Shown here piece by piece: positions 1,054 to 19,979 of a stretch of 36,400 bases of DNA. Each line of letters begins with the position of its first letter. Position 1 is the first letter of the stretch. The position numbers were made by a program, and so were the translations under genes. The notes under the pieces were generated by a model. The model saw only the letters and a program-made list of their open reading frames with translations, was not told the DNA's origin and searched no databases. Source of the DNA: a virus (Duplodnaviria > Heunggongvirae > Uroviricota > Caudoviricetes); IMG/VR virus record IMGVR_UViG_2563366874_000010. The stretch is one strand, 5' to 3'.

Positions 1054-1077
1054 AAAAAAGCCCTCATATCAGAGGGC
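1054..1077 (-). terminator. Hairpin (GCCCTC/GAGGGC stem, 6-nt loop) followed by a U6 tract on the minus-strand transcript, directly upstream of the int ATG
   Basis: Stem 1060-1065 pairs with 1072-1077; A-run 1054-1059 on + strand gives U-run on the leftward transcript; the GAGGG of the stem is the only Shine-Dalgarno-like sequence for int. Confidence 0.4.
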
Positions 1078-1136
1078 TAAATTTAACTGTATATACAACC
1101 AGCAATCAATGTGTGATTGCTATGAAACATACATTG

Positions 1137-2813
1137 CTAAGCAACATGTAGTTCATCGTTGGCGGAAGTGGCTGCTTTGCGTTCCTGCTCAATAGCTAGT
1201 GACTCTCTATATTCTTTCGCCTCTGCAAACATTGTCCAGTGGGCATTGATGTTCATATCTTCAATAACCGATTTAATTTCTTTAATATTTACGTTAAAAA
1301 ACTCTTTTCGTGAGTTAATTTTATTGACCTGCTTTTCGTTGAAGACTTTATGCAGATGATTTTCTAATGACGGTGCATCATCACTATAAATCATCGCATG
1401 AACATCGAACGAAAAAGGAACACTAGCATCCCCAAGTTCACGAACACGATCAAGTGGTTCAAGGCGGCGTGTCATTCCAATTTTATATACATCTTCGCCA
1501 AATGAGCCAATATTGCTAATTATATAAACATGGCCTGATCTAGTTTGTTGAGCCATAGAAATAGCTCGTTGGTTTTTAGCTTCAGCTTCTTCATATTTTA
1601 ACTGTAGTTCAGCTATTTTTTGCTCTAAAGCTAAGCGTTGTTCTTCATTTGCAAGCATAAGCTCTTTCGTTGCTTTATTTATAGCTTGCTGAATAGCTTT
1701 CTCTTCTTTTTCGGCTTCTTTTATCGCTTTTTCATACTCTCTACGAGCTCTTTCCTCTTCACGAAGCTGTTCTTTAATCCTTCTTTGCTCCTCTTTTTCT
1801 TCGAGCATAATTTCATTAACTGCAACTCCCCATTTTAGCTCGTTGAGTCGTGCCTGAAGATAGATGTCACTTATTTTTGCGGATCTAAAAGCAGAGCCAT
1901 TATAATTTACAAGTTGAAATGCATCTTTTATTTCTTGGGAAAGTTTTCCAAAATTGTTGTGTTTGACTTTTGATAAAATACTGTCAACTCTTCCATTGAA
2001 GGCATCCAAAACAAAGTTGATAGCAGTATTACGCCTGTTTTGCTCAACATAATCACACGAAGCTGCTTTATTAGTTTTTATTAATAATTTTGTTAACTCC
2101 CTGGCTTTTTGTAATTCCTTGCCTGCATCTGTAAACTCATAATTTTCTGCCAATTCATCAAGTACACTACGGTTAGGGATGATCCATTCATCGCCATAAC
2201 CTTCAATTTTATTTTTCATTGATTTGGCAACTGCTTCATATTTTTCTGCAAACTCTTTAGCTTCATATGCTGAACCAGCAATCTCTTTTGCTCTTTCTTC
2301 TGCATCGGAAATAATTTTTACTGCGTTGTCATTAGCATTTGAGATCAACTCATTTGCTTTACTGTTGGCATTATCAAGACGTTCTTTGGCTTTCAGGCGT
2401 GCATCGCGAGCGTCTTTGGTGATTGCTATAGCTTCGCTATTAGCGTTGCTTATTGTTATCTGAGCTTGATAACTTGCTTCGTTTACTGTCTTAGCTGCCT
2501 TTATTTGGGCTTCTTCTATTTTTTGCCTAGCTATTGAGTCTGCATTTTTTATCTTATTCTCTGCCTCCATCACTGCGCTGTGCAATTCTTCGTATTGCCA
2601 TAATGGTGCTGCTCGCCCTTCAAGCTCTGATAGATCTCGTGCAGTCTGTGCTAACTTTTCTTGATTTTCACTCAGTTGGCTGGAAAGGGCTATGTTGTTA
2701 GCCGTCAGGTTATCTATGGCGGCTTTGTGTTCTTTACTTTGCTTAAATAATATTATAGCTAGAACAGGGGCGAGAAATGCTAATAAGAATATAACGATGG
2801 AAAATGAATTCAT
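1137..2813 (-). CDS. Membrane-anchored coiled-coil protein with C-terminal GIY-YIG-like (T5orf172/DUF4041-type) domain; cargo gene
   Basis: 558-aa ORF; N-terminal hydrophobic helix (IVIFLLAFLAPVLAIILF), about 350 aa rich in A/E/K/N/Q heptad-like repeats, C-terminus GHVYIISN...VYKIGMTRR...R...H; RBS AAGGA upstream; visibly AT-rich. Confidence 0.8.
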   Translation of the reverse strand: MNSFSIVIFLLAFLAPVLAIILFKQSKEHKAAIDNLTANNIALSSQLSENQEKLAQTARDLSELEGRAAPLWQYEELHSAVMEAENKIKNADSIARQKIEEAQIKAAKTVNEASYQAQITISNANSEAIAITKDARDARLKAKERLDNANSKANELISNANDNAVKIISDAEERAKEIAGSAYEAKEFAEKYEAVAKSMKNKIEGYGDEWIIPNRSVLDELAENYEFTDAGKELQKARELTKLLIKTNKAASCDYVEQNRRNTAINFVLDAFNGRVDSILSKVKHNNFGKLSQEIKDAFQLVNYNGSAFRSAKISDIYLQARLNELKWGVAVNEIMLEEKEEQRRIKEQLREEERARREYEKAIKEAEKEEKAIQQAINKATKELMLANEEQRLALEQKIAELQLKYEEAEAKNQRAISMAQQTRSGHVYIISNIGSFGEDVYKIGMTRRLEPLDRVRELGDASVPFSFDVHAMIYSDDAPSLENHLHKVFNEKQVNKINSRKEFFNVNIKEIKSVIEDMNINAHWTMFAEAKEYRESLAIEQERKAATSANDELHVA

Positions 2814-2833
2814 TTTTAAATCCTTTTACTATA

Positions 2834-3430
2834 TCAATTTGAAACTATTGTACTTCTTATACAAGCAACCACTTCAATATCAGAAAATGCACATTCAAAG
2901 CTATTCTCTGTAGTTGTAATTTTAATCATACCTTTTGGAAGCTTTGTGATTTTTCGAATGGAATAGGTTCCGTCGATGTTGATTAACCAGTGTCCATCAA
3001 GTACTTCAGAAAATTTTTGATCACAAATGTATGTGACAAGCCCATCCTGAATAACAATTGGTGATGAAAGATTTGCAGGAAGAAATGATGAATCGAATAC
3101 ATATGAACCATCTTCAATCATTTTGCCTGCGGTAAGGCGAAACTTGGGAAGCTCTTCTGTGGCTACTGTCAGCGAGCTTTGCTTAAGTCCTTGCCCGGTG
3201 GTTAACCATTTCAGTGAGGTTCCTGTTTCAAGAGCACATTGGATTATCCAGTCTGCAGGAAACGTATCCCGCAAATACCTGTTCGCCAGAGTGCTTTTTG
3301 ATACTTCCAAGTGATCAGCTAAAGCCTGTCGTGTCGTAAAGCCATAAGCTTCGACTAATCGCTCAATCGCAGCCTTACCACCTTTATTGGGATTTATTTT
3401 GATCTCACTTGGGTACTTTGATGTTGACAT
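2834..3430 (-). CDS. cI: Immunity repressor, phage 186 CI-like (HTH N-domain)
   Basis: 198-aa ORF with HTH segment TTRQALADHLEVSKSTLANRY and CALETG..W.TGQG, matching recalled 186 CI; divergent from apl/cII. Confidence 0.8.
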   Translation of the reverse strand: MSTSKYPSEIKINPNKGGKAAIERLVEAYGFTTRQALADHLEVSKSTLANRYLRDTFPADWIIQCALETGTSLKWLTTGQGLKQSSLTVATEELPKFRLTAGKMIEDGSYVFDSSFLPANLSSPIVIQDGLVTYICDQKFSEVLDGHWLINIDGTYSIRKITKLPKGMIKITTTENSFECAFSDIEVVACIRSTIVSN

Positions 3431-3452
3431 ATCTCTTTTGCGATCCTAGTAT
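3424..3452 (+). promoter_or_regulatory. Candidate rightward lytic promoter (pR-like): TTGACA - 17 bp - TAGTAT
   Basis: -35 TTGACA at 3424-3429, -10 TAGTAT at 3447-3452, upstream of apl; flanked by direct repeats TTGGGTACTT at 3409-3418 and 3469-3478. Confidence 0.45.
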
Positions 3453-3525
3453 CAGTTTTGTCCCCATTTGGGTACTTGTCACGATTACTACAGGCTCACC
3501 ACAAGCCAATAGGAGATGTTGCATC

Positions 3526-3747
3526 ATGACCCCTAACATTTCAATAACTCTGAATACGCCACATGTCACAATTGAGCGTTATAGCGAACTTACTGGTCTT
3601 TCAATCGACACAATTAACGATATGCTGGCTGACGGTCGCATCCCTCGGCATCGCCTTCGGAAAGACAAGAAAAGAGAAAAGGTGATGATCAACCTTGCTG
3701 CTCTTACCGTTGATGCACTTACTGATTGCAATGTTGTATTCAACTAG
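3526..3747 (+). CDS. apl: Apl/Cox-type excisionase and lytic-switch regulator
   Basis: Small basic ORF first in the rightward operon, divergent from cI; RBS AGGAG 10 nt upstream of ATG 3526; HTH-like [24 protein letters not shown]. Confidence 0.7.
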
Positions 3748-3779
3748 TTCCATTTTGGGATACATCAGGGGTGTCGACC

Positions 3780-4289
3780 ATGTTTGATTACCAAGTTTCC
3801 AAACATCCACATTTTGATGAAGCCTGTCGTGCATTCGCATTGCGCCACAACCTGGTGCAACTGGCAGAACGTGCTGGCATGAATGTGCAGATTCTGCGGA
3901 ACAAGCTGAACCCATCTCAACCTCATTTATTAACCGCACCAGAAATCTGGCTGCTTACCGATCTGACTGAAGATTCAACGCTGGTAGATGGTTTTCTGGC
4001 ACAGATTCACTGCCTGCCATGTGTACCGATTAATGAGGTTGCAAAAGAGAAACTGCCGCATTACGTCATGAGCGCAACTGCAGAGATCGGACGTGTTGCA
4101 GCAGGTGCGGTATCTGGTGATGTAAAAACTAGTGCCGGTCGTCGTGATGCTATCAGCAGCATTAACTCTGTAACACGACTGATGGCGCTGGCTGCTGTTT
4201 CATTGCAGGCCCGTTTACAGGCTAATCCTGCGATGGCGAGTGCAGTTGATACCGTGACTGGCCTCGGTGCTTCATTCGGTTTGCTGTGA
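3780..4289 (+). CDS. cII: CII-like transcriptional activator (phage 186 CII-like)
   Basis: ORF from MFDYQVSK, 169 aa, matching recalled size and N-terminus of 186 CII; RBS AGGGG upstream. Confidence 0.75.
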
Positions 4290-4296
4290 GGTGCTT

Positions 4297-4497
4297 ATGC
4301 TGACGAAAGAACCATCATTTGCATCGCTGCTGGTAAAACAAAGCCCGGCAATGCACTACGGTCACGGCTGGATCATGGGTGAGGATGGTAAACGCTGGCA
4401 TCCGTGCCGTTCACAAGATGAATTGCTGGCAGAACTATCTACGAAAAAACGGGGGAACAAATGGCTATTGAAGGCGCTGCGGCGACTGTTCCATTAA
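4297..4497 (+). CDS. Small early protein, hypothetical
   Basis: 66-aa ORF with RBS GAGGTG upstream of ATG 4297, right after the cII stop. Confidence 0.55.
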   Translation: MLTKEPSFASLLVKQSPAMHYGHGWIMGEDGKRWHPCRSQDELLAELSTKKRGNKWLLKALRRLFH

Positions 4498-4802
4498 GCC
4501 CCGGTGAACGCCTGAATGGACTTAATCACATTGCGGAATTAAGGGCGAAAGTATTTGGCCTGAATATTGAGTCAGAGCTTGAGCGGTTTATTAAAGATAT
4601 GCGTGATCCACGGGATATCAATAATGAACAAAATAAACGAGCACTGGCTGCCATATTCTTTATGGCAAAAATTCCAGCTGAACGTCATAGCATCAGCATT
4701 AATGAGCTGACCACTGACGAAAAGCGGGAGTTGATTAAAGCAATGAATCATTTTCGTGCAGTGGTGAGCTTATTTCCCAGACGGCTAACCATGCCGAATT
4801 AA
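4461..4802 (+). CDS. Early protein, hypothetical
   Basis: 113-aa ORF; RBS GGGGGA before ATG 4461; overlaps end of previous gene. Confidence 0.6.
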   Translation: MAIEGAAATVPLSPGERLNGLNHIAELRAKVFGLNIESELERFIKDMRDPRDINNEQNKRALAAIFFMAKIPAERHSISINELTTDEKRELIKAMNHFRAVVSLFPRRLTMPN

Positions 4803-4869
4803 CCAACTAATGAAATTAATGGCGTAAACCCGCCGGGTATCCCTTTATCTAAATTCAGGAGAATTGATT

Positions 4870-5103
4870 ATGCGTAATATTGAAACTCTCACGACTAAAA
4901 CCGGACCGGATGATGCAGGGCTTAATATTTTACTGACAGAGGCTCGTCTGGAAGAACGCCGGGCAAGGGCTGAAGCAATGGCAGCTCGCCTTGATAGCCT
5001 GGCGTGTCATATCACATCCCGCCAGCTAAACCACGTCGAAGCAGCAGAACTGCTGCGTGTAACTGCTGAAGCAATCCAGAACGAAGCGCAGGAGATCCAC
5101 TAA
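4870..5103 (+). CDS. Small early protein, hypothetical
   Basis: RBS CAGGAGA then ATG 4870; stop overlaps next start (TAATG). Confidence 0.6.
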   Translation: MRNIETLTTKTGPDDAGLNILLTEARLEERRARAEAMAARLDSLACHITSRQLNHVEAAELLRVTAEAIQNEAQEIH

Positions 5104-5330
5104 TGGCTGATGCAATGGATCTCGTACAGCAGCGCGTTGAAGAAGAACGCCAGCGCCATATCCGTGCTGCCCGTGCCAAAACGCCGGGCGTGTCCCGCGT
5201 GCTTTGCATTGAGTGTGAAGCGCCAATTCCGCCAGCACGCCGCCGTGCCATTCCGGGTGTGCAGCTTTGCATTACCTGTCAGGAAATCGCAGAGCTGAAA
5301 GGCAAACATTACAACGGAGGTGCTGTATGA
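5103..5330 (+). CDS. TraR/DksA-type C4 zinc-finger protein
   Basis: 75 aa with CIECE...CITCQ four-cysteine motif; RBS GGAGA upstream. Confidence 0.75.
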
Positions 5331-5629
5331 CAAGGGCAGTGCGTATCCATCAATTAAAAATTGCACCTAAGTATTTCAACGCTGTGGTTGCAGGTCAAAA
5401 GACGGCTGAACTTCGTAAAGACGATCGTGGCTATAAAGTTGGTGATGTTCTTTCTCTTTGCGAATGGAAGCATGGCGTATTTACGGGTAGGGAATGGGCC
5501 GCTGTTATCTCTCATGTGCTTCCGGTTAATGACGTCATGGCAGTTTCAGAACAATGGGTGATGCTATCAATTCGCCCATTAACCCCATTAGAAGCTTTAG
5601 GATATGTTATTGCAGGAGGTGCTGTATGA
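5327..5629 (+). CDS. ASCH/PUA-like small protein (DUF3850-like)
   Basis: 100-aa ORF starting in ATGA overlap with previous stop; RBS GGAGG; motif pattern [26 protein letters not shown] typical of ASCH-like domains (from memory). Confidence 0.6.
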
Positions 5630-6483
5630 GCACCATCCTGAAATGGGCGGGAAATAAAACCGCCATTATGTCCGAACTGAAAAAACACCTTCCTGCTGGC
5701 CCGCGACTGGTTGAACCTTTCGCGGGTTCCTGTGCTGTGATGATGGCGACGGATTACCCCAGCTATCTGGTTGCGGATATTAATCCTGATTTAATCAACC
5801 TCTATAAAAAGATTGCCGCTGATTGCGAGGCGTTTATATCTCGCGCCAGAGTTTTATTTGAGATCGCAAACAGGGAGGTGGCTTATTACAACATAAGGCA
5901 GGAGTTTAATTACTCAACTGAAATTACTGATTTCATGAAAGCGGTATATTTCCTGTATCTCAATCGTCATGGTTACCGTGGGTTATGTCGCTATAACAAG
6001 AGCGGGCATTTCAACATTCCCTACGGGAATTATAAAAATCCGTATTTCCCTGAAAAAGAAATTCGCAAATTTGCAGAAAAAGCCCAGCGAGCAACGTTTA
6101 TCTGCGCCAGCTTTGATGAAACGCTGGCGATGCTGCAGGTGGGGGATGTGGTGTATTGCGATCCGCCTTATGACGGTACGTTTTCCGGCTATCACACTGA
6201 CGGCTTCACTGAAGATGACCAGTATCACCTGGCATCTGTTCTTGAATATCGATCATCAGAAGGTCATCCAGTCATTGTTTCTAACAGTGACACATCCCTG
6301 ATCCGTTCGCTGTATCGCAATTTCACTCACCACTACATCAAGGCAAAACGCAGCATCGGCGTGTCGGCTGGCGAGAGTAAATCTGCAACAGAAATCATTG
6401 CTGTTTCCGGGGCGCGCTGCTGGGTGGGATTTGATCCTTCGCGTGGCGTGGATAGTTCTGCTGTGTACGAGGTGCGTGTATGA
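5626..6483 (+). CDS. DNA N6-adenine methyltransferase, Dam family (orphan, no cognate endonuclease seen)
   Basis: 285 aa; N-terminal ILKWAGNK and catalytic DPPY (VYCDPPYDG) motifs; start in ATGA overlap with RBS GGAGG. Confidence 0.9.
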
Positions 6484-8894
6484 GTCATGCCGATATGAGC
6501 GACTCTAGCGGCTTTAACGAGGCCGCTGCAGCATTTTCATGGAACGGCCCGAAAAAGGCCATAAACCCTTATCTGGACCCGGCGGAAGTTGCGCCGGTTT
6601 CTGCGCTTTCAAACCTGATCACTCTGTATGCTGCCGATAACGAGCAGGAACAGCTGCGCCGCGAGGAATTGAGTGAACAGGTCTGGGAGCGTTATTTCTT
6701 TAATGAATCCCGTGATCCTGTCCAGCGCGAAATGGAGCAGGATAAGCTCATTAGTCGGGCAAAGCTGGCGCATGAGCAGCAGCGTTTTAACCCGGACATG
6801 GTCATTCTGGCGGACGTCAGCGCCCAGCCCACCCATATCAGCAAGCCGCTGATGCAACGTATCGAATACTTCAGCAGCCTGGGCAGGCCAAAGGCTTATT
6901 CCCGCTATTTGCGTGAGACGATTAAGCCATGTCTGGAGCGACTGGATTGTGTACGTGACAGTCAGCTATCTGCTTCTTTCCGTTTTATGGCAAGCCATCA
7001 AGGGCTGGAGGGCCTGCTGATCCTGCCTGAAATGAGTCAGGATCAGGTGAAACGCCTGTCCACCCTGGTAGCAGCGCATATGAGCATGTGTCTTGAGGCC
7101 GCTTGTGGTGATTTGTATGCCACCGATGACGTTAAGCCAGAAGAAATCCGCAAGACATGGGAAAAGGTGGCAGCGGAAACCCTGCGTCTGGATGTTATCC
7201 CGCCTGCGTTTGAGAAACTTCGTCGGAAAAGAAACCGCCGCAAACCCGTGCCCTATGAACTCATACCGGGTTCGCTGGCACGTATGCTTTGCGCCGACTG
7301 GTGGTATCGGAAATTGTGGAAGATGCGTTGCGAATGGCGGGAAGAGCAGTTGCGTGCTGTCTGTCTGGTCAGCAAAAAAGCATCTCCCTATGTCAGCTAT
7401 GAAGCAGTGACACATAAACGTGAGCAGCGCCGCAAGTCGCTGGAGTTTTTCCGTTCTCATGAACTGGTGAATGAAGACGGAGACACGCTGGATATGGAGG
7501 ATGTGGTAAACGCCAGCAGCAGCAATCCGGCGCATCGCCGCAATGAGATGATGGCCTGTGTTAAAGGTCTGGAGCTTATCGCAGAAATGCGCGGTGACTG
7601 CGCCGTTTTCTACACTATCACCTGTCCGTCACGTTTCCATTCCACGCTCAACAACGGCAGACCCAACCCGACCTGGACAAATGCGACGGTAAGACAAAGC
7701 AGCGATTATCTGGTCGGCATGTTTGCTGCATTTCGTAAGGCTATGCACAAAGCCGGGTTGCGCTGGTATGGCGTGCGGGTGGCTGAGCCGCACCATGACG
7801 GTACTGTGCACTGGCATCTCATGTGTTTCATGCGCAAAAAAGACCGCCGCGCCATTACTGCATTGTTGCGTAAGTTTGCCATCCGTGAAGACCGTGAGGA
7901 ACTGGGCAATAACACGGGGCCACGCTTTAAGTCTGAGCTGATAAACCCGCGCAAAGGAACGCCGACAAGCTACATCGCGAAATACATCAGTAAGAACATT
8001 GACGGACGTGGTCTGGCTGGCGAGATCAGCAAGGAAACGGGTAAATCCCTGCGTGATAACGCCGAATACGTGAATGCCTGGGCGTCTCTACATCGTGTTC
8101 AGCAGTTCCGCTTCTTTGGTATTCCGGGGCGTCAGGCGTACCGTGAACTTCGCTTGCTGGCTGGTCAGGCGGCAAGGCAACAGGGTGACAAAAAAGCAAG
8201 TACGCCGATACTGGATGACCCGCGCCTTGATGCCATCCTGGCTGCCGCTGATGCTGGCTGTTTTGCCACCTACATCATGAAGCAGGGCGGCGTACTGGTT
8301 CCCCGCAAATATCACCTTATCAGAACAGCTTATGAAATTAACGAAGAGCCGACCGCTTATGGCGATCACGGTATTCGTATTTATGGCATCTGGTCACCCA
8401 TTGTACAGGGCAAGATCTGCACTCATGCAATGAAATGGAAAATGGTTCGTAAGGCCGTTGACGTTCAGGAGGCGGCAGCCGACCAGGGCGCTTGCGCCCC
8501 TTGGACTCGTGGCAATAACTGTCCCCTTGCTGAAAATTTGAACCAACAGGAGAAAGATAAATCAGCTGATGGGGACACCAGAACGGACATTACCCGCATG
8601 GATGACAAGGAGTTGCACGATCACCTGCACAGTATGAGCAAAAAAGAGCGCCGGGAACTGGCTGCAAGGTTACGCCTGGTTAAACCGATACGGCGTAAAG
8701 ACTACAAACAGCGAATTACAGATCATCAGCGACAGCAGCTCGTTTATGAGCTGAAGTCCAGAGGATTTGATGGCAGCGAGAAAGAGGTCGATTTACTCCT
8801 TCGCGGCGGCAGTATTCCGTCAGGAGCAGGCCTGCGTATCTTCTATCGGAACCAGCGTCTGCAGGAGGATGATAAATGGCGGAACCTGTATTAA
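6480..8894 (+). CDS. A: Replication initiation protein, P2 gpA-like rolling-circle endonuclease
   Basis: 804-aa ORF with HxH-type segment ([13 protein letters not shown]) and tyrosine-containing region (YIAKYISKN). Confidence 0.9.
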
Positions 8895-8988
8895 TTACGC
8901 TGGTTAACAATTCGTGCTCTTAATAATACCAGGCATATCAGGCTGATGAGCGTAAAAAAACGTTTTACATCAGTAAGATTATTATATA

Positions 8989-9004
8989 CTGTAAATATAA
9001 ACAG
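8989..9004. promoter_or_regulatory. LexA box (SOS operator) CTGTAAATATAAACAG
   Basis: Exact CTGT-N8-ACAG palindrome with AT-rich spacer, overlapping a -10-like TATACT (8985-8990) upstream of the ORF at 9048. Confidence 0.75.
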
Positions 9005-9047
9005 TGGTTATGTGTACAGTATTGCTTGTGGTGTCATAGGAGGAAAA

Positions 9048-9236
9048 ATGCAGGACTATTTTTTGGAGTCTTTGAAGCTCCAGCGCATTGATTTTTTTCT
9101 TAAGCTTGTAGCGGCTAGTGAGTGTAGTGATGAAGAGAAGGGGCTGGCCCTGCAGTGGGTTTCTGAACTGACAGATGAACTCATGGCAAAAATCAGAACC
9201 CACGAATACAACCGCTCAATGGATGTCATCAGTTGA
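9048..9236 (+). CDS. Small SOS-controlled protein, possibly the N-terminal part of a Tum-like antirepressor
   Basis: 62-aa ORF with RBS AGGAGG before ATG 9048, just downstream of the LexA box. Confidence 0.55.
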   Translation: MQDYFLESLKLQRIDFFLKLVAASECSDEEKGLALQWVSELTDELMAKIRTHEYNRSMDVIS

Positions 9237-9246
9237 GGTGACTTTT

Positions 9247-9480
9247 ATGCGCATTGAAATAATGATCGATAAAGAGCAGAAGATTAGCCAGTCTACCCTG
9301 GACGCCCTTGAATCCGAGCTTTACCGCAATCTGCGCCCCCTGTATCCCAAAACGGTAATTCGTATCCGTAAAGGTAGCTCTAACGGTGTGGAACTGACCG
9401 GACTGCAACTGGATGAAGAAAGAAAACAAGTGATGAAAATTATGCAGAAGGTGTGGGAAGACGACAGCTGGCTGCATTAA
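9247..9480 (+). CDS. DinI-family protein (Tum C-terminal-like)
   Basis: 77 aa starting MRIEI, resembling recalled E. coli DinI (MRIEV...DAL..EL...WE..D.W); RBS GAGGTGA upstream. Confidence 0.8.
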   Translation: MRIEIMIDKEQKISQSTLDALESELYRNLRPLYPKTVIRIRKGSSNGVELTGLQLDEERKQVMKIMQKVWEDDSWLH

Positions 9481-9672
9481 GAAACGTTGCCCCCAGGAGG
9501 ATTCATTCTGATGGGGGCTAGTTTGGGCAACGAGTGAAACGAGGCGTAAGGTGGGTGGGCATTTTGATAAGTGATCGTCCGCTTTGTGTCAGAAGCAGAA
9601 GTGGGAGTGTCTGAGACTCTCTAAAAGTTGATGATTCACTTACAAAACCATTTTCCTGATGAATGCTTACAC

Positions 9673-10008
9673 TTACGAATGATCATTCTGTTTAGTCTTC
9701 ATGAGAAAATCCCGAATCTTTGCCAAGTTTGAATTTTCGGGGATTGAATCCATGTACGGATCACGCTCAAACACTAATTGCTCAGATTCAACGAAAGCCT
9801 GCCACTCTACTGGGTCTAGCTCAAATCCCATTGCTGTCATATCACTTTCATCTTCCCCCTCGATCCAGTGGACTAAATAAAACAATTCATCATCAGGAGA
9901 ATCATCCTCACCATCAACAATATCAACATCGGTTACAGTGATACGTAGGGTGGGATCGATTTTTGAGACATAAATTCCTAACTGTGGTATAGGGGGAATA
10001 TTGTTCAT
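9673..10008 (-). CDS. Small strongly acidic protein, unknown function; cargo
   Basis: 111-aa ORF with strong RBS (AAAAGGAG) before ATG at 10008; D/E-rich runs (DGEDDSPDDE, EGEDESD); convergent with the SOS module. Confidence 0.7.
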   Translation of the reverse strand: MNNIPPIPQLGIYVSKIDPTLRITVTDVDIVDGEDDSPDDELFYLVHWIEGEDESDMTAMGFELDPVEWQAFVESEQLVFERDPYMDSIPENSNLAKIRDFLMKTKQNDHS

Positions 10009-10387
10009 GGAAACTCCTTTTATTGGTGTTTGCTATTTGAATAAAAATACGCCAAACAGAGTGTTAACTGTGAATATGGAAAGAATCGTTGTAAGTACCC
10101 CGCTTAGGTGTCCCATTCTATTTTAGAGGTTCTCGTGCATATGGATTATGTTATCTGAAAGCTAACTTCCGCTTCCCGTTCACAGCGAACATTCATCTTT
10201 GTAAACCCGTATGATCCGTTTTTCAAGTGGCCATTCAGATACGGATTTTCACTTCCTTGACAGTGCATGACTATGCTGCATGAAATCGCATGATCGATTG
10301 AGGATCGTCTTTGCTCAGATCCGCCAGAACTGGCGGGCTTTTGCTCATGTCATGCATGTGCATGAAAACCACTGCATAAAGCGGGCA

Positions 10388-10406
10388 GGCGTGGCGGGGA
10401 TACGAG
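10388..10406. other. Candidate cos cohesive-end sequence (GGCGTGGCGGGGATACGAG)
   Basis: First 13 nt match the recalled P2/186 cos 19-mer family (GGCG[A/T]GGCGGGGA); hairpin plus T-tract (10321-10342) just upstream. Confidence 0.35.
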
Positions 10407-10458
10407 CGCGCGCTATCACCGAAAATAGCCAAAATACTTCTGGAAAACAGAAAGTTGA

Positions 10459-12405
<1,947 letters not shown>

Positions 12406-12409
12406 TGAA

Positions 12410-12444
12410 CAGCCCTAACGTTATGAACGCTAAGGCTGATTTTT
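12410..12444 (+). terminator. Weak hairpin plus T-tract after the RT gene
   Basis: CAGCC (12410-12414) pairs with GGCTG (12434-12438), followed by ATTTTT. Confidence 0.3.
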
Positions 12445-12446
12445 CG

Positions 12447-13475
12447 TTAAAATTTATATGGTTTGAATTGTAATATATTATCTTCAAGCCATTTATTTAA
12501 TTCCTGCATCCTTTTCTGTAAGGGTATTAATTCGTTCCTCACAAACACTAAACTCGCTTTTTCCACATCCCCAAACCCCCCAACATTATTCGGCATAATC
12601 CCCATCATTTGCGGTGGCACACGATGCGCTGCCATCATGTCATCGCGGCTGACATTTTTGATATTCAGAAACTCATCCTTCGCCGCGACTTCTGACAATG
12701 GGATGATCTGAAGTCCGTCCTTTTTGCCGTTAGGCGAGTACATAAACAGATTGCGGAAGTTACCTGGTCCTTTGGCGCTTTTCATCGCATTGCGGAGGTT
12801 GTTCACATCCTCCTGGTTCTGCGCAGCATCGGTCATGTACATGATGAAGCCTGCATGACTGCCGTTAATGTAATACGTGCGGCGGAACAGCGTGGCGGAC
12901 TCGTTGAGCAGAGCTGACGGAATGGCAGAAAGATAACCGGGCAGGCCGTAGATCTCCTGGTTGATGTCCGGTTCCAACAGATGAAAGATGCTGCCTTTCG
13001 TGAACTGATACGGCTGGGTTGTCATACCGTATTGCACAAACCAGTAGGTATCCAGGTCTAACCCGCGTCGGGTGTATTTTGCCAGCGCAGGCTCAAGAGC
13101 GATGACCTCTCCGAAGCGGTTCGTGCGTTTTTCCAGGTAGGCGTTACCAAAAACCAGATAGTCCTGTACAAAACGCGAAAAAGCCTGCTGGCTGAGCAGC
13201 GGGTGAGGGATGTAGGTGCTGGTCAGAATGTTGCATTTCACCGCAATTGGTGAACTGTGATGCACGGCAGCGCGGAAGGTGCGCGCCAGTCCGTCAAAGC
13301 TGACAGGAGGCTCATACCAGCGATCTGTCTGTACGCATTCCACATAGTCCAGCAGTTCGCGGCGGTCAAGTACAGGAACGGGATCACCGAAGCTGAATGC
13401 TTCGGCTGAAGTCTGGCTTTTATGCTTGAGCTGATTCGTCGCCGCAGCGCGGTTTTTCTTACTCTTTCCCATCAA
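12447..13475 (-). CDS. Q: Portal protein, P2 gpQ-like
   Basis: 342-aa ORF, leftward, overlapping the terminase gene; size and position as in P2. Confidence 0.85.
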   Translation of the reverse strand: MMGKSKKNRAAATNQLKHKSQTSAEAFSFGDPVPVLDRRELLDYVECVQTDRWYEPPVSFDGLARTFRAAVHHSSPIAVKCNILTSTYIPHPLLSQQAFSRFVQDYLVFGNAYLEKRTNRFGEVIALEPALAKYTRRGLDLDTYWFVQYGMTTQPYQFTKGSIFHLLEPDINQEIYGLPGYLSAIPSALLNESATLFRRTYYINGSHAGFIMYMTDAAQNQEDVNNLRNAMKSAKGPGNFRNLFMYSPNGKKDGLQIIPLSEVAAKDEFLNIKNVSRDDMMAAHRVPPQMMGIMPNNVGGFGDVEKASLVFVRNELIPLQKRMQELNKWLEDNILQFKPYKF

Positions 13476-15238
13476 AAAATCTCCACAATATTGCTGGTAT
13501 TGGCGGATTCGCCCTGCAGCGGTTCGTTAAACAATGCGTGCATCGTTGCCCAGGCCAGATCGGCGTGGCTGGCTTCTTCGCTGCGGCTGGCTTCATAGGT
13601 CGGGCGGTTGCCGCTGGCGGTGGTGGCGCGACGGATTGCCATGAAGGACTGCGCAATGTCGGTGTGTCCGGCGTCAAATTCTAGGCGGCGGTGACTGATA
13701 ATGTCGTAGGCCTTGAGTACCAGGGCGTTTTTAACGTTGGGGTTGTAGACAAACTCCCGGACGGCAGGAAAGAATGCTTTCACGTTCTCGTAAACCCCGT
13801 GGCCGACGCCAGTTGAGTCGATGCCGATGTATGTCACGTTGTACTGTTCGGTCAGTTTTTTGATGGCGTCAGCCTGGGCGCGGAAGTCCATCCCGCGCCA
13901 CTGGTGACGCTCAAGAATGCGGAACTTACCGCCCGGCACGGCTGGCGGTGCCACCACCACGCACCCGGCGCTGTCGCCGTTTTGCGTACCTTTTGCCGGG
14001 TCATAACCGATCCACACTTCGCGCCAGCCAAACGGGCGCAGGGCCAGTGCATGAAAGTCGGTCCAGACTTCCCAGCTGTCCACCATGCACGCCTGCAGCT
14101 CGCTGAGCGGGAACACGGACGCGAGATCGTCCACGAATTCACACATCAGCAGGTTCTGGTATTCGTCCGGGCTGTATTCCATGCGCAACTGGTCAAGGTC
14201 GAACAGGTTACAGCCGCCGCGCACCGCATCTTCCACGGTGACTATCTGGCGGTATTGCCCGTCTGCACACAGCAGGCCTGGAGCCAGATTGCTGTGGGAC
14301 AGGTCGATGTCCACCTTGTCGGCTTTATTGCGCCCACGGTTGAATAGCGCACCGGACCAGAACGGATAAGCACTGTGTGTCAGGCTGGATGGCGTGGAAA
14401 AATAGGTTTGTCGCCATTTTTTGTGAATAGCCATACCGGAAGCCACTTTGCGCAGCTCCTGGAATTTCGGTATCCAGAAATATTCATCCAGATACAGGTT
14501 GCCGTGATAACTCTGGGCCGTGCGGGCATTGGTGCCGAGGAAGTAAAGCGTGGCCCCGTTAGGAAGCACCATCGGATCGCCTTTCAACTCCACCTCCACT
14601 TCTTTGGCGAAGTCGATGATGTACTGCTTAAAGACGTGGGCCTGTGCCTTGCTGGCGGAAAGGAAAATCTGGTTACGTCCGGTCAGCAGGGCGTCAATCA
14701 GGGCTTCACGGGCAAAGTAAAAGGTCGCGCCGATCTGGCGTGACTTCAGCAGGTTGCGGATGCGGTTGGTTTTTCCGGCTTCCCACCAGTGGCGCTGGTA
14801 GTTGAACATGGAGGAATGGAAGATTTCTTCCAGCTTCTCAATCTGCTCATCGGTGAAAACATTCTTTTCCGACTGACGGCGTGGGCCTTTGTTGCGGTTG
14901 GCGACGTTAGGGTTTAAGTCGGATTCGTTGCCGCCATTGTTAAACTTGCCGATCCGCGCGTGGCGCTCAGACTGGCGCGCCAGCAGGTCAATCTCTTTGA
15001 AATCTTTCCCTTCTTTGTGCTCCTTCATGATGAGCTGGCAGTAGCGTGCGGCGGTGGTGAGCTGCATCTGATCCAGCGGCCCATAGTCACCCCACTTGTC
15101 GCGTTTTTTCCAGCTGTGAACGGTTGCAACTTTCTCGCCCAGCATTTCAGCAATGCGGGCTACGCGGTATCCCTGAAAGTACAGCAGCATGGCCTGCCGA
15201 CGGGGATCGAGATCTGCGGGTGTCAGTGTGGTGTTCAT
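13472..15238 (-). CDS. P: Terminase large (ATPase) subunit, P2 gpP-like
   Basis: 588-aa ORF; position and length as in P2 gpP; start overlaps the Q gene end. Confidence 0.9.
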   Translation of the reverse strand: MNTTLTPADLDPRRQAMLLYFQGYRVARIAEMLGEKVATVHSWKKRDKWGDYGPLDQMQLTTAARYCQLIMKEHKEGKDFKEIDLLARQSERHARIGKFNNGGNESDLNPNVANRNKGPRRQSEKNVFTDEQIEKLEEIFHSSMFNYQRHWWEAGKTNRIRNLLKSRQIGATFYFAREALIDALLTGRNQIFLSASKAQAHVFKQYIIDFAKEVEVELKGDPMVLPNGATLYFLGTNARTAQSYHGNLYLDEYFWIPKFQELRKVASGMAIHKKWRQTYFSTPSSLTHSAYPFWSGALFNRGRNKADKVDIDLSHSNLAPGLLCADGQYRQIVTVEDAVRGGCNLFDLDQLRMEYSPDEYQNLLMCEFVDDLASVFPLSELQACMVDSWEVWTDFHALALRPFGWREVWIGYDPAKGTQNGDSAGCVVVAPPAVPGGKFRILERHQWRGMDFRAQADAIKKLTEQYNVTYIGIDSTGVGHGVYENVKAFFPAVREFVYNPNVKNALVLKAYDIISHRRLEFDAGHTDIAQSFMAIRRATTASGNRPTYEASRSEEASHADLAWATMHALFNEPLQGESANTSNIVEIF

Positions 15239-15284
15239 GGCACAAACCTACAGCCTTGAATGAAGGCTTTCCCCGCCTGCGGTT

Positions 15285-15302
15285 TGTGTGGTTGTCGGTA
15301 CA
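15285..15302. promoter_or_regulatory. Late-promoter activator site TGT-N12-ACA (Ogr/B type) in the divergent P/O region
   Basis: TGTGTGGTTGTCGGTACA, about 80 bp upstream of the O start codon. Confidence 0.5.
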
Positions 15303-15380
15303 AATACCGCGCATTGTTTCACTGCCCCCATCACCGCAACCATAAGGCTCCAGTAAGTTTTTTCTAACGGAGCACGGCTC

Positions 15381-16214
15381 ATGACAGTGAAAGCAAAGCG
15401 TTTTCGCATCGGGGTGGAAGGTGCCACCACCGACGGACGCGAAATCCAGCGTGAATGGCTGGAACAGATGGCAGCCAGCTACAACCCGGCGGTGTATACC
15501 GCGCTGATTAACCTTGAGCACATCAAGTCTTATCTGCCGGACAGCACCTTTAACCGCTACGGCAAGGTGACTGCGCTGTTTGCTGAAGAAATCACGGAAG
15601 GTCCGCTGGCAGGCAAGATGGCGCTGTATGCCGACGTTGAGCCAACGGAGTCCCTGGTGGAACTGGTGAAAAAAGGCCAGAAATTATTCACCTCTATGGA
15701 AGTCAGCCCGAAGTTTGCTGATACGGGCAAAGCCTACCTGGTCGGCCTGGCTGCCACTGATGACCCTGCCAGTCTGGGCACTGAAATGCTGACATTCAGC
15801 GCCAGTGCAGCCCATAACCCGCTGGCAAACCGCAAGCAGAATCCCGCCAATCTTTTTACCGCTGCAGAGGAAACGGTGATCGAACTGGAAGAAATCCAGG
15901 ATGACAAACCGTCCCTGTTTGCCCGTGTCACGGCGCTGTTCACCAAAAAAGAGCAGTCCGATGACGCCCGGTTCTCTGATGTGCATAAGGCCGTGGAACT
16001 GGTCGCCACTGAGCAGCAGAACCTGAGTGCGCGCACCGAAAAATCCCTGTCTGAGCAGGAAGAACACCTGTCTGAGCTGGAGACTGCCCTGCAGGCACAG
16101 CAGACCGCCTTTAACGAACTGGTGGACAAGCTGAGCCATGAAGACAGCCGCCAGGACTACCGCCAGCGTGCAACAGGCGGTAACGCCCCCGCTGACACTC
16201 TGACCAATTGCTGA
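15381..16214 (+). CDS. O: Capsid scaffolding protein, P2 gpO-like
   Basis: 277 aa; N-terminus (FRIGVEG..DGR.I......EQMA..Y.P.VY...INLEH) matches recalled gpO. Confidence 0.9.
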   Translation: MTVKAKRFRIGVEGATTDGREIQREWLEQMAASYNPAVYTALINLEHIKSYLPDSTFNRYGKVTALFAEEITEGPLAGKMALYADVEPTESLVELVKKGQKLFTSMEVSPKFADTGKAYLVGLAATDDPASLGTEMLTFSASAAHNPLANRKQNPANLFTAAEETVIELEEIQDDKPSLFARVTALFTKKEQSDDARFSDVHKAVELVATEQQNLSARTEKSLSEQEEHLSELETALQAQQTAFNELVDKLSHEDSRQDYRQRATGGNAPADTLTNC

Positions 16215-16230
16215 TGGAGCACAAAACCTG

Positions 16231-17289
16231 ATGAAGAAGAATACCCGCTTTGCTTTTAACGCTTACCTGCAGCAACTGGCGCGTCTGAACGGTGTGGCAG
16301 TTGAAGAACTGTCCAGCAAGTTCACCGTAGAGCCGTCCGTGCAGCAGACATTGGAAGACCAGATTCAGCAGTCCGCCGCTTTCCTGACGCTGATTAACGT
16401 CACGCCAGTGACTGAGCAGTCCGGTCAGCTGCTGGGGCTGGGTGTTGGCAGCACCATTGCCGGAACCACTGATACCACAGCTAAAGAGCGTGAGCCTGTC
16501 GATCCGACGCTGATGGTCGATGTGGAATATAAATGCGAGCAGACCAACTTTGACACGGTGCTGACCTACGCGAAGCTGGATCTGTGGGCGAAGTTTCAGG
16601 ATTTCCAGGTGCGCATCCGTGACGCCATCGTGAAACGTCAGGCACTGGACCGCATCATGATCGGCTTTAACGGCGTGAAGCGTGCGAAAACCTCCAACCG
16701 TAGCGAAAACCCGCTGCTGCAGGATGTGAATAAAGGCTGGCTGCAGAAAATCCGTGAGGATGCACCGGATCACGTCATGGGCAGCACCACCACGGGCGGT
16801 GAAACCACACCGGGCGCGGTGAAAGTCGGTAAAGGTGGCGAATATGCCAACCTGGACGCCGTAGTGATGGATGCTGTTAATGAGCTTATCGACGTGGTCT
16901 ACCAGGACGATGACGATCTGGTGGTGATTTGCGGTCGTGAACTGCTGTCTGACAAGTATTTCCCGCTGGTCAACAAAGAGCAGGAAAACAGTGAAAAACT
17001 GGCTGCCGATATGATCATCAGTCAGAAACGCATGGGTGGCCTGCAGGCGGTGCGTGCGCCGTTCTTCCCGCCGAATGCGCTGCTGATCACCCGTCTGGAT
17101 AACCTGTCCATTTACTGGCAGGAAGACACCCGCCGCCGTTCGGTTATCGACAACCCGAAACGTGACCGGATTGAAAATTTTGAATCCGTTAACGAAGCCT
17201 ACGTGGTTGAGGACTACCGCTGCGCCGCACTGGTGGAAAACATCCAGATTGGCGACTTCAGCGCCACCGCAGCAGAAGCCGGAGCGTAA
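16231..17289 (+). CDS. N: Major capsid protein, P2 gpN-like
   Basis: 352-aa ORF following the scaffold gene. Confidence 0.9.
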   Translation: MKKNTRFAFNAYLQQLARLNGVAVEELSSKFTVEPSVQQTLEDQIQQSAAFLTLINVTPVTEQSGQLLGLGVGSTIAGTTDTTAKEREPVDPTLMVDVEYKCEQTNFDTVLTYAKLDLWAKFQDFQVRIRDAIVKRQALDRIMIGFNGVKRAKTSNRSENPLLQDVNKGWLQKIREDAPDHVMGSTTTGGETTPGAVKVGKGGEYANLDAVVMDAVNELIDVVYQDDDDLVVICGRELLSDKYFPLVNKEQENSEKLAADMIISQKRMGGLQAVRAPFFPPNALLITRLDNLSIYWQEDTRRRSVIDNPKRDRIENFESVNEAYVVEDYRCAALVENIQIGDFSATAAEAGA

Positions 17290-17292
17290 ACC

Positions 17293-17943
17293 ATGAGCCT
17301 GAGTCCCGCACGGCAGCATCGCCTGCGCGTTCAGGCTGAACAGGCCGCCCGCGAGGGTGGCAGCGTTCGCCACGCGTCGGGCTATGACCTGATGCTGCTG
17401 CAACTGGCGGAAGACCGCCGCCGTCTCAAGGGCGTTCAGTCCACGGTCAAAAAAGCGGAAATCAAGGTGGAGCTGCTACCGAAATATGCCGCCTGGGCGG
17501 AGGGCGTCCTGGCTGCCGGAGGCGCTCAACAGGATGACGTGCTGATGTACGTGATGCTGTGGCGCATTGATGCCGGAGATTATGCCGGGGCGCTGGAGAT
17601 TGGGCGTCATGCCCTGCGTCATGGCTGGGTGATGCCGCTGGGTAACCGCAATGTGCAGACCGTGCTGGCAGAGGAAATGGCTGACGCGGCACAGAGCGCA
17701 ATGCTTGCCGCCACCGGCTTTGATGCCGATCTGTTGTTGCAGACGCTGGAGCTGACAGACGGTCTGGATATGCCGGACCAGTCACGGGCGCGTCTGCATA
17801 AAGCGATTGGCGCTGTCCTGAGTGAAAGCAATCCGGCTTCCGCCCTTAATCATCTCAACCATGCGTTACAGCTCGATCCCCGCTGTGGCGTGAAAAAAGA
17901 CAAACAGCAGCTGGAGCGCAGACTGCGCAATGACAGCCGCTGA
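17293..17943 (+). CDS. M: Terminase small (endonuclease) subunit, P2 gpM-like
   Basis: 216-aa ORF directly after the capsid gene. Confidence 0.85.
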   Translation: MSLSPARQHRLRVQAEQAAREGGSVRHASGYDLMLLQLAEDRRRLKGVQSTVKKAEIKVELLPKYAAWAEGVLAAGGAQQDDVLMYVMLWRIDAGDYAGALEIGRHALRHGWVMPLGNRNVQTVLAEEMADAAQSAMLAATGFDADLLLQTLELTDGLDMPDQSRARLHKAIGAVLSESNPASALNHLNHALQLDPRCGVKKDKQQLERRLRNDSR

Positions 17944-18038
17944 CAGAACGTGCCCCCGCGCACGGGCGGCACGGGGTGGCGAAAGGCACAGCCACATCAA
18001 AACCCCGTCCACCGCCCTTTATTTCAGGAGAAAGCAGC

Positions 18039-18503
18039 ATGAAGTTTGTTGCGCCAGAACAGGCACCGGAACAGGCGGAAATCATCAGGAATACGCCGTT
18101 CTGGCCTGATGTGGACTTGTCGGAGTTTCGCAGTGTCATGCGTACTGACGGCACGGTGACGCAGCCGCGTTTAAAGCAGGTTGCGCTGTCGGCAATTTCG
18201 GAGGTCAACGCAGAGCTGTATGAGTTTCGCAGACGTCAGCAGATGCTGGGGTATGCGTCGCTGGCTGAGGTTCCGGCGGAACAGCTGGACGGCAAAAGTG
18301 AGCGCATTCATCACTATTTCAACGCGGTTTACTGCTGGGCACGCGCCATGCTCAATGAGCGTTATCAGGACTATGACGCCACGGCGTCCGGTGTGAAGCG
18401 GGGCGAGGAACTGGCGGAAGCAAGCGGTGATTTGTGGCGTGACGCCCGCTGGGCCATCAGCCGGGTACAGGATGCGCCGCACTGCACAGTGGAGCTTATC
18501 TGA
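18039..18503 (+). CDS. L: Head completion/stabilisation protein, P2 gpL-like
   Basis: RBS CAGGAGAAAG before ATG 18039; position between M and X. Confidence 0.8.
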   Translation: MKFVAPEQAPEQAEIIRNTPFWPDVDLSEFRSVMRTDGTVTQPRLKQVALSAISEVNAELYEFRRRQQMLGYASLAEVPAEQLDGKSERIHHYFNAVYCWARAMLNERYQDYDATASGVKRGEELAEASGDLWRDARWAISRVQDAPHCTVELI

Positions 18504-18706
18504 TGAAAGTGCGTGCGCATCAGTATGACACGGTGGACGCGCTTTGCTGGCGTCATTACGGGCGCACGCAGGGTGTCACGGAGCAGGTACTGAAGGCAAA
18601 TCCGGGGCTTGCCGAATACGGCCCCTTTTTACCTCACGGGCTGCAGGTGGAGCTGCCGGACATTCCGACAACCACCACCGTGCAGACCGTCCAGCTATGG
18701 GACTGA
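18503..18706 (+). CDS. X: Tail protein X (LysM-like), P2 gpX-like
   Basis: 67 aa, same size as P2 gpX. Confidence 0.8.
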   Translation: MKVRAHQYDTVDALCWRHYGRTQGVTEQVLKANPGLAEYGPFLPHGLQVELPDIPTTTTVQTVQLWD

Positions 18707-18709
18707 ATT

Positions 18710-18925
18710 ATGACGCTTGAGCGAATCAGCGCCTTTATCACGTATTGCATCGCCGTTGTGCTGGCCTGGCTGGGCGATTTGTCCATCAAGGATATCTCAA
18801 CGCTGGGCGGCCTGATGATTGGTGTGCTGATGCTGGCTATCAACTGGTACTACAAACACAAAGCCTACCAGCTTCTGCGCGACGGGCAGATCTCGCGGGA
18901 GGACTATGAATCCATCAATCGTTAA
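18710..18925 (+). CDS. Holin (two-TMD, pinholin-like)
   Basis: 71 aa with two hydrophobic segments and charged C-terminus; directly precedes the endolysin. Confidence 0.7.
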   Translation: MTLERISAFITYCIAVVLAWLGDLSIKDISTLGGLMIGVLMLAINWYYKHKAYQLLRDGQISREDYESINR

Positions 18926-19421
18926 ACGCTGCCTTGTCGGGGCTGTGCTGGCTATTGCTGCCACGCTGCCGGGTTTTCAGCAGCTTCACACCTCCGTGGA
19001 GGGACTGAAACTGATCGCCGATTACGAAGGCTGTCGTCTGCAGCCGTATCAGTGCAGCGCGGGCGTCTGGACCGACGGAATTGGTAATACGTCGGGCGTC
19101 ATTCCCGGCAAAACTATTACGGAACGACAGGCAGCAGAAGGGCTGATCTCCAACGTGCTGCGTGTGGAGCGGGCGCTGGAAAGGTGTGTGAAGCAACAGC
19201 CGCCGCAGAAGGTGTATGACGCTACGGTGTCGTTTGCCTTCAACGTGGGAACGGGCAATGCCTGCAGTTCCACACTGGTGAAATTGCTCAATCAGCGGCG
19301 CTGGGCAGATGCGTGCCGACAGTTGCCGCGCTGGGTGTATGTAAAAGGTGTGTTTAATCAGGGGCTGGATAACCGCCGCGTGCGGGAGATGGCCTGGTGC
19401 CTTAAAGGAGCTGGACGATGA
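18906..19421 (+). CDS. Endolysin, lysozyme family, with N-terminal signal-anchor-release (SAR)-like segment
   Basis: 171 aa; N-terminal weakly hydrophobic Gly/Ala-rich stretch (LVGAVLAIAATLPGF) followed by a lysozyme-like domain resembling recalled phage P21 R. Confidence 0.8.
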   Translation: MNPSIVKRCLVGAVLAIAATLPGFQQLHTSVEGLKLIADYEGCRLQPYQCSAGVWTDGIGNTSGVIPGKTITERQAAEGLISNVLRVERALERCVKQQPPQKVYDATVSFAFNVGTGNACSSTLVKLLNQRRWADACRQLPRWVYVKGVFNQGLDNRRVREMAWCLKGAGR

Positions 19422-19846
19422 CGCGTGCGCTGGCAGTAGTGGTGGCGCTGGTACTCGTTGCGCTGGGCTGGCAGTCGTGGCGGCTTAACAGCGCCAGCCA
19501 CACCATCGAAACGCAGCGCGCGGCGCTAGAAAGTAAAGCGCAGGAACTAACGAAGAAAAATAGCCAGTTGATCAGTCTGTCCATTCTGGCTGAAACCAAC
19601 AACCGGGAGCAGGCGCGGCTCTATGCCGACGCAGAACAGACCAGCGCACTGCTGAGACAACGACAACGCCGGATTGAGGAACTGAAACGTGAGAACGAGG
19701 ATTTACGCCGCTGGGCTGATACTCCTTTGCCTGCTGACATTATCCGGCTGCGGGAACGCCCCACACTCACCGGAGGTGCAGCTTACCGTCAGTGGTTGTC
19801 CGCGAGTGACGCCGTGCCGGCTGGATCAGGCAGCGCCGCGCACTAA
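19418..19846 (+). CDS. i-spanin (Rz/LysB-like)
   Basis: 142 aa with N-terminal TMD and coiled-coil periplasmic region, after the endolysin. Confidence 0.75.
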   Translation: MTRALAVVVALVLVALGWQSWRLNSASHTIETQRAALESKAQELTKKNSQLISLSILAETNNREQARLYADAEQTSALLRQRQRRIEELKRENEDLRRWADTPLPADIIRLRERPTLTGGAAYRQWLSASDAVPAGSGSAAH

Positions 19847-19979
19847 CGGTGATCTGAACGCATTGCTGGATGAAACGGAGGCCGCCTGGGCGGTCTGTGC
19901 AGACAAAGTGGATATGATTATTGCGTGTCAGGAGCGAAACAGTGAACAAACCACAATCCCTGCGCCACGCCCTCAATAA
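19689..19979 (+). CDS. o-spanin (Rz1/LysC-like lipoprotein), overlapping the i-spanin in another frame
   Basis: Signal peptide with lipobox LTLSGC and proline-rich C-terminus; non-ATG (GTG) start assumed. Confidence 0.55.
   Translation: MRTRIYAAGLILLCLLTLSGCGNAPHSPEVQLTVSGCPRVTPCRLDQAAPRTNGDLNALLDETEAAWAVCADKVDMIIACQERNSEQTTIPAPRPQ

Follow-up and report, generated by a model that had tools for sequence, protein, structure and literature searches.

A predicted P2/186-family cos site between two cargo slots of the retron Ec67 prophage

We analysed a 36,400-nucleotide stretch of viral DNA (Caudoviricetes; IMG/VR record IMGVR_UViG_2563366874_000010), hereafter referred to as the window. Comparison with phage records indicates that positions 10262-10413 are very probably the cos packaging site of a complete P2/186-family prophage, namely the known retron-Ec67 prophage. 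We put the probability of this reading at roughly 0.92. Within the block, the 19-mer GGCGTGGCGGGGATACGAG spans exactly 10388-10406 on the plus strand. This is a direct read of the sequence and bears out the initial annotation, which had proposed a cos-like element at this position. The 19-mer is the predicted cohesive end, with the top strand predicted to be nicked at 10387/10388 and the bottom strand at 10406/10407. The properties expected of a P2/186-type cos are found together here. These are the overhang sequence, core homology on both flanks, a syntenic position and cognate terminase genes within the element.

As references for alignment, we used the records of phages 186, P2 and P4, with the right end of each joined to the left end to give circularised cos regions. 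The P2 record opens with GGCGAGGCGGGGAAAGCAC and the 186 record with GGCGTGGCGGGGAAAGCAT; both agree with the cohesive ends given in the initial annotation. In P2, cosL is annotated at 1-19 and is repeated as cosR. The 186 record assigns the cohesive end to bases 1-19 and places the top-strand cut at the 5' end of these. The predicted cohesive end of the window aligns with both of these annotated features and is identical at 15 of 19 positions to 186, and at 14 of 19 to P2 and P4. A cos core of ~55 bp in P2 and P4 is credited to Ziermann and Calendar 1990 in the accounts given by PMC5694545 and PMC9594776. Its equivalent in the window is 10358-10413, where 44 of 56 positions match 186 and 43 of 56 match P2 and P4. 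Across the same 56 positions, P2 and P4 are identical to each other at 52. P2 and P4 are not known to share anything besides this core.

Alignment to the right end and cohesive end of 186, P2 and P4 covers the whole 152-bp block (10262-10413) and so extends far past the 13 nucleotides on which the proposal of a cos had been based. Before the overhang, the shared pattern is (G/C)TGCAT(G/T)AAAACC...AAAG(C/T)GGGC; here, the window reads GTGCATGAAAACCACTGCATAAAGCGGGCA and 186 reads CTGCATTAAAACCGACCCATAAAGTGGGCA. The overhang itself starts with GGCG(A/T)GGCGGGGA in all of these sites and is followed by (T/C)GCGCGC. Hence, CGCGCGC at 10407-10413 of the window corresponds to TGCGCGC in 186. These are the last conserved bases on the left-end side, and (T/C)GCGCGC follows the 19-mer in P2, 186, P4, Fels-2 and SEN8. 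Further upstream, TGCAT repeats and a GC-rich hairpin also line up with the phage cos regions. Unlike in P2, 186 and P4, the upstream hairpin of the window is backed by a T-tract.

The position of the site is likewise that of P2, 186 and P4, between replication or accessory genes and the portal gene. The order in the window is gpA (6480-8894), a DinI-like gene (9247-9480), cos (10388), the portal gene (12447-13475, minus strand) and the gene for the large terminase subunit (13472-15238, minus strand). Taken further, the series gpA, DinI, cos, portal, large terminase, scaffold, capsid and small terminase is the P2/186 order.

Relative to 186, the 19-mer diverges at four of its last six bases. 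The differences are at overhang positions 14, 16, 17 and 19 (ATACGAG here, AAAGCAT in 186). In the initial annotation, the resemblance to P2 and 186 was described as a match through the first 13 nucleotides. The resemblance holds, but the divergent 3' part is the normal form of a Fels-2/SEN8-type variant and not the failing end of a partial match. We also considered, and rejected, the idea that the divergent 3' half marks a damaged or decayed cos. Fels-2 and Escherichia phage vB_EcoM-813R9 carry the 26-mer GGCGTGGCGGGGATACGAGCGCGCGC without change, and it is present in more than 120 viral contigs. The record of Salmonella phage SEN8 begins with the same 26-mer, and its positions 1-19 are annotated 'putative cos site'. 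Because SEN8, Fels-2 and the viral contigs all share the identical 26-mer, the divergence of the last six bases is a variant of this lineage and not decay.

Annotation of relatives points the same way. The last 88 bases of the SEN8 record are the equivalent of window positions 10300-10387, and the SEN8 genome paper prints exactly the 19-mer of the window as the cos site (PMC5427200). In Cartapus, the core is 98.2% identical and is annotated 'putative cos site, homologous to the cos of P2 phage'. We found no experimental end-mapping in the literature for this prophage or for other phages with the exact 19-mer, and the cos sites of SEN8 and Cartapus are annotations. Similarly, a physical-end signal was sought among the listed viral contigs with the 26-mer, and none has the match at a contig end. 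Only the SEN8 record starts and stops at the site, and its ends were set by annotation.

The upstream part of the module is 84-98% identical across SEN8, Fels-2, SopEPhi, RE-2010 and Cartapus. In contrast, the cargo on both sides of cos differs between these five phages and the window. For instance, the stretch from cos to the portal gene encodes a hypothetical protein and an HNH endonuclease in SEN8, and Fels-2 carries a 565-aa hypothetical protein as cargo. The packaging genes follow the same affinity as the cos. Window positions 12447-20400, encoding the portal protein, both terminase subunits and head proteins, have 96.4% DNA identity to Cartapus, whereas the portal, terminase and head genes are about 67% identical to those of 186 and P2. 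The packaging module is therefore closer to the Fels-2/Cartapus type (80-96% DNA identity) than to 186 (about 67%). Since cos and the Cartapus-like packaging genes are both of this type, the site and the enzymes expected to cut it form one packaging module.

We next delimit the cos module, which covers 10262-10413, or -126 to +26 when counted from the predicted top-strand nick. Viral contigs were searched for exact copies of the 26-mer. This returned at least 120 stretches, and 121 occurrences were oriented and compared with the window position by position. Among these listed matches, identity to the window is 0.63-1.0 inside approximately -126 to +26. Outside the block, on both sides, it is 0.21-0.36, which is the random level. 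Positions 0 to +25 are identical by construction, the contigs having been picked with the 26-mer. An independent megablast search against 5426 complete E. coli genomes is free of this circularity. Matches were obtained in 1306 of these genomes. Among 25 hits drawn as a spread sample, the majority are confined to ~10262-10414, and homology stops at 10411-10416 in almost every row. Consistent with this, 10262-10413 is 88-91% identical to Fels-2 and vB_EcoM-813R9, while both flanks are without similarity. Among the 121 listed contig occurrences, about 95 different sequences start right after CGCGCGC. Hence, a sharp conserved island with unrelated flanks separates two variable cargo slots. Conserved through 10413, the module provides a precise landmark with which to delimit cargo on either side in P2-family prophages.

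The leftmost part of the module is rich in TGCAT. Five copies occur in 10262-10387, against 0.15 expected, and this is the densest cluster of the whole window. The motifs line up with the TGCAT repeats of 186 and P2. The left cluster (10263-10294, plus strand), comprising GTGCATGA, CTGCATGA and TCGCATGA, contains candidate binding sites for the small terminase subunit.

The spacing on both sides of the module varies widely. Among contigs in the listed matches, the distance from module to portal gene is 156-3534 bp (n = 88) and that from the DinI-like gene to the module is 76-3318 bp (n = 81). At the short end of the right-hand range (156-188 bp) are 'empty' sites, which, like 186 and P2, contain a spacer and the portal-operon terminator alone. 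In the window, the retron fills a right gap of 2033 bp, and an acidic ORF lies in a left gap of 781 bp. The retron thus replaces ~156-188 bp of the 'empty' relatives and of 186. Immediately right of the module, 10414-10437 (GAAAATAGCCAAAATAC) is short and degenerate. It resembles (A/G)AAATGG(C/T)(C/G)AAAATCC, a motif of 'empty' sites, and also comparable strings of SEN8 and 186. By this likeness, it may be a remnant of the ancestral left-end sequence, with the retron cargo proper probably beginning after it. Conservation of the site past 10413 was considered and rejected. All that is seen there is a weak A-rich motif (10421-10437) in 18 of the 121 listed contigs, mostly 'empty' ones, which we treat as a remnant and not as part of the essential site. 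At the opposite end of the cargo, the last ~3-20 portal codons (12447-12510) are AT-rich, with a GC content of about 0.29. DNA similarity is lost over this segment in comparisons with Cartapus and 813R9, which are otherwise 91-96% identical, and similarity to Fels-2 starts at 12457. Therefore, the variable region appears to extend a little way into the portal gene at its right junction.

A hairpin plus T-tract had been noted ahead of the 19-mer, at 10321-10342. The element is present and spans 10320-10343 on the plus strand, -68 to -45 from the nick. It is not a separate feature but a conserved internal part of the cos module. The GC-rich hairpin is CCGCCAG-AA-CTGGCGG at 10321-10336, followed by GCTTTTGC to 10343, and with its CTTTTGC tract the whole resembles an intrinsic terminator. 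A consensus scan likewise places a terminator-like site on the plus strand at 10320-10337, with the tail CTTTTGCTCA. The hairpin is small, having a 6-7 bp stem and 4 T. Its RNA fold (-13.3 kcal/mol; z = -1.9) is only moderately better than those of shuffled sequences. In the 121 contig occurrences among the matches listed, the stem and T-tract are near-invariant and the two loop bases are variable.

The hairpin and T-tract most likely stop rightward transcription from the replication/DinI operon before it reaches the cut site. This is the least certain point of our interpretation. A terminator is favoured because the T-tract is conserved as is the stem, and because this lineage is without the upstream terminator t95b. 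Thus, in 'empty' relatives, the hairpin is the first terminator-like element past the DinI-like gene. Counting against such a role, the nearest gene upstream of the hairpin in the window is on the opposite strand. We rejected the possibility that the hairpin is t95b of 186 itself; t95b lies further upstream in 186 and is without counterpart in this lineage.

Alternatively, 10320-10343 could be a structural or protein-binding element of packaging, such as a palindrome for terminase or for a host DNA-bending protein. A role of this sort is possible because 186 and P4, at a similar spacing from the nick, carry a GC hairpin that differs in sequence and lacks a T-tract. Invariance of the stem alongside a variable loop would also fit, as would the location of the hairpin inside the conserved module and away from its edge. 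We nevertheless consider this alternative rather doubtful. In the Fels-2-type lineage, among the matches listed, the T-tract is conserved as strongly as the stem, P2 has no clear equivalent of the hairpin, and the absence of t95b leaves 'empty' relatives with no earlier terminator-like element after the DinI-like gene. We thus retain transcription termination as the preferred role.

In the initial annotation, a retron was placed between cos and the portal gene. The mapped features agree with this: the predicted nick at 10387/10388 is followed by the msr-msd (10477-10607), the reverse transcriptase (RT) gene (10645-12405) and the portal stop codon (12447). The msr-msd is the ncRNA gene of retron Ec67. 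It is read from the plus strand and closed by terminal inverted repeats, with 10477-10489 pairing with 10595-10607. The fold of 10474-10612 has an energy of -59.3 kcal/mol (z = -4.75) and the closed form usual for an msr-msd gene. An Rfam scan of 9000-13000 at E <= 1 gave no match, retron RNA included, and is uninformative about cos. The RT gene (plus strand) encodes the 586-aa RT-Toprim fusion of retron Ec67, also called Retron-Eco2, type I-C. Residues 1-586 align with the 'Retron Ec67 protein' of PDB entries 9i2f/9lm3 (1325 bits), and PADLOC returns RT-Toprim_I-C with E = 4e-217. A 586-aa RT-Toprim protein with a structured msr-msd directly upstream identifies the system as retron Ec67, type I-C. 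Between the RT and portal stop codons, a hairpin at 12410-12438 is a probable two-way terminator. Its minus strand folds at -18.3 kcal/mol (z = -6.6), and its plus strand at -10.5 kcal/mol, followed by AUUUUU. Termination in both directions is conceivable because of the strong minus-strand fold and the plus-strand U-run.

Retron-Eco2 forms a trimeric complex in which Toprim nucleases are caged by msDNA (PMC12916289). Decay of the msDNA is started by the phage nuclease DenB, and the freed enzyme cuts tRNAs (PMC12916289). In the packaged genome, the retron would make up the first 2 kb. It would therefore be carried by every virion, if the prophage is active. Annotation of this region by PGAP was taken from NZ_CP134805, which is identical across the queried interval 9480-10700. 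Two gene calls in that record are likely artefacts. A 'hypothetical protein' ORF at 10280-10474 crosses cos, and the RT start is put at 10465 (646 aa), which is 180 nt too early and swallows the msr-msd. We also note that the coordinate offset between the window and NZ_CP134805 shifts by one base within 1053-9480.

The arrangement has been published (Dodd and Egan 1996; Rousset et al. 2022), and the finding is therefore already known. According to PMC6868368 and PMC5694545, Dodd and Egan 1996 (Virology 219:115-124) described insertion of Ec67 and Ec86 in 186-related prophages. PMC5694545 further refers to cosL-to-gpQ as a hotspot for foreign genes, citing the same work. As represented in these accounts, the Ec67 site is like that of the window, with the retron lodged in a 186/P2-family prophage and flanked by cos on one side and the portal-gene terminator on the other. 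The RT of the window is essentially identical to the PDB protein, and we see no difference of substance from the arrangement of Dodd and Egan as so represented. As a discovery, the locus thus carries little weight. What it offers is a correct recognition of cos from sequence alone and confirmation of the classic placement of Ec67.

The left cargo slot extends from the DinI-like gene to the cos module (9491-10261), and neither Fels-2 nor 813R9 is similar to it. Within this slot lies the acidic ORF at 9673-10008 on the minus strand. The encoded protein of 111 aa has 26 D/E residues versus 7 K/R. It matches phrog_17127, a family labelled as of unknown function, and is named DUF8087 by PGAP; there is no Pfam or PADLOC match. 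The initial annotation had put this ORF in the classical tin/old slot. That placement is correct, since a minus-strand gene between the DinI-like gene and cos has the position and orientation of old/tin in P2. The protein has no similarity to Tin or Old and no match to a defence model, and so is not a member of tin/old. An acidic, DNA-mimic-like role for the 9673-10008 protein would be only a guess. In other E. coli genomes, the acidic ORF is found with other right-hand cargos. It is independent of the retron, because of these pairings elsewhere.

Both slots thus turn over separately. In some E. coli genomes, the left cargo and cos are 98.8% identical to the window and similarity is lost at 10413-10416. 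Since left cargo and cos are kept without the right cargo, the two slots assort independently. Retron-type RTs are found in the right slot of 11 of the 121 listed contigs, belong to at least 5 kinds and all read away from cos. Rousset et al. 2022 (PMC9122126) reported that, in P2-like phages, the cos-adjacent region from gpA to gpQ is a hotspot for defence systems, retrons among them. With its variable cargo adjoining cos, the locus in the window is one instance of this hotspot. To this we add that the hotspot is divided by cos into two slots that assort independently.

The prophage as a whole appears to be complete. Based on the PGAP annotation of NZ_CP134805, the order begins with integrase, a defence gene, CI, an Apl-like gene, CII, Dam methylase, gpA, the DinI-like gene and the acidic ORF. 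It continues with cos, the retron, portal, terminase, head, lysis and early tail/baseplate genes, to ~22,700. Tail genes at ~22,700-33,300 were judged by ORF sizes and order alone. A full set of packaging genes is present. The portal gene, the homologue of P2 Q and 186 W, matches Pfam Phage_portal and is named 'phage portal protein' by PGAP. The large (ATPase) subunit of terminase is the homologue of P2 gpP and the expected cos cutter; it matches Pfam Terminase_5, Terminase_6N and Terminase_6C. The small subunit (17293-17943, plus strand), the homologue of P2 gpM, matches Pfam Phage_term_smal (E = 2e-40). Ogr (33294-33545) was identified by a Pfam match. A 27-bp direct repeat, ATAAATTTTAGACAACAAAAAACCCAC, flanks the prophage as attL and attR. 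One copy lies 74-100 bp before the window start and the other at 33610-33636. These repeats bound an element of ~33.7 kb between rcdA and ybjL/ybjM. An Ec67 element of ~34 kb with short flanking repeats was reportedly described by Hsu and colleagues in 1990, and the element in the window fits that description.

Several further genes merit mention. Between integrase and CI, 1137-2813 (minus strand) encodes a 558-aa protein matching PADLOC PD-Lambda-1 (E = 2e-119), with T5orf172/MUG113 nuclease-like domains. PGAP names it 'SNIPE associated domain-containing protein', and it is a second defence cargo in the prophage. At 20817-21512 (minus strand), a gene for a 231-aa DUF6216 protein lies on the opposite strand, with a virion morphogenesis gene on one side and baseplate gene V on the other. 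It resembles another cargo insertion within the tail gene cluster. A Dam-type DNA adenine methylase gene (5554-6483, plus strand) lies just upstream of gpA and is a backbone gene, also found in Fels-2 and 813R9. In databases it is labelled 'retron EC67 DNA adenine methylase', yet it is separated from the retron by 4 kb, with cos in between.

A site that is cos by descent could still have fallen out of use, as the well-preserved relic of a defective prophage. In near-identical NZ_CP134805, PGAP flags a fil-like gene as frameshifted, and the exact combination of features in the window occurs in only 11 of 5426 complete E. coli genomes. We consider a relic very improbable, as fil is not a packaging gene. 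Moreover, no disruption besides fil is flagged from integrase through the early baseplate genes, Ogr and both att repeats are present, the whole 152-bp module retains its 88-91% identity to relatives, and SEN8, a phage isolate, has the identical 26-mer. A fortuitous resemblance of this GC-rich stretch to the cohesive ends of P2 and 186 is a negligible prospect; although only 13 contiguous bases are shared with the consensus given in the initial annotation, it is ruled out because the flanks of the 19-mer align too, over 150 bp and with four phage cos regions, the location is syntenic, and the 13-mer GGCGTGGCGGGGA has a single exact copy in the window (2 further sites appear only at <=2 mismatches). 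Hence, a cos packaging site of a complete prophage remains the preferred reading.

The probable scheme for packaging follows that of P2 and 186. After induction, the prophage's own terminase (small subunit 17293-17943; large subunit 13472-15238) would recognise the module, probably via the TGCAT repeats and the ~55-bp core left of the cut. If cleavage proceeds as in P2 and 186, nicking at 10387/10388 (top) and 10406/10407 (bottom) would generate 19-nt 5' overhangs of GGCGTGGCGGGGATACGAG. With conservation past the overhang limited to 7 bases (CGCGCGC), most recognition elements would lie on the right-end side. For the same reason, foreign DNA can sit almost against the cut. The retron ncRNA gene would then start 90 nt from the predicted left end of the virion DNA, followed by RT-Toprim and then the portal gene.

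More tentatively, the cos module may be a self-contained 152-bp unit. It would combine its own transcription stop against read-through with a fixed anchor for recombination, so that P2-like phages would exchange cargo independently on either side, possibly also with P4-like satellites carrying the same core. We found no statement of a terminator inside cos in the literature searched. The recombination-anchor half of the idea is largely implied by published work on the cos-adjacent hotspot. Finally, one viral contig, IMGVR_UViG_3300011853_000021, has two cos 26-mers in opposite orientation, ~3.2 kb apart, at 3440-3465 (minus strand) and 6704-6729 (plus strand). This pair could reflect misassembly, inversion or two adjacent elements.
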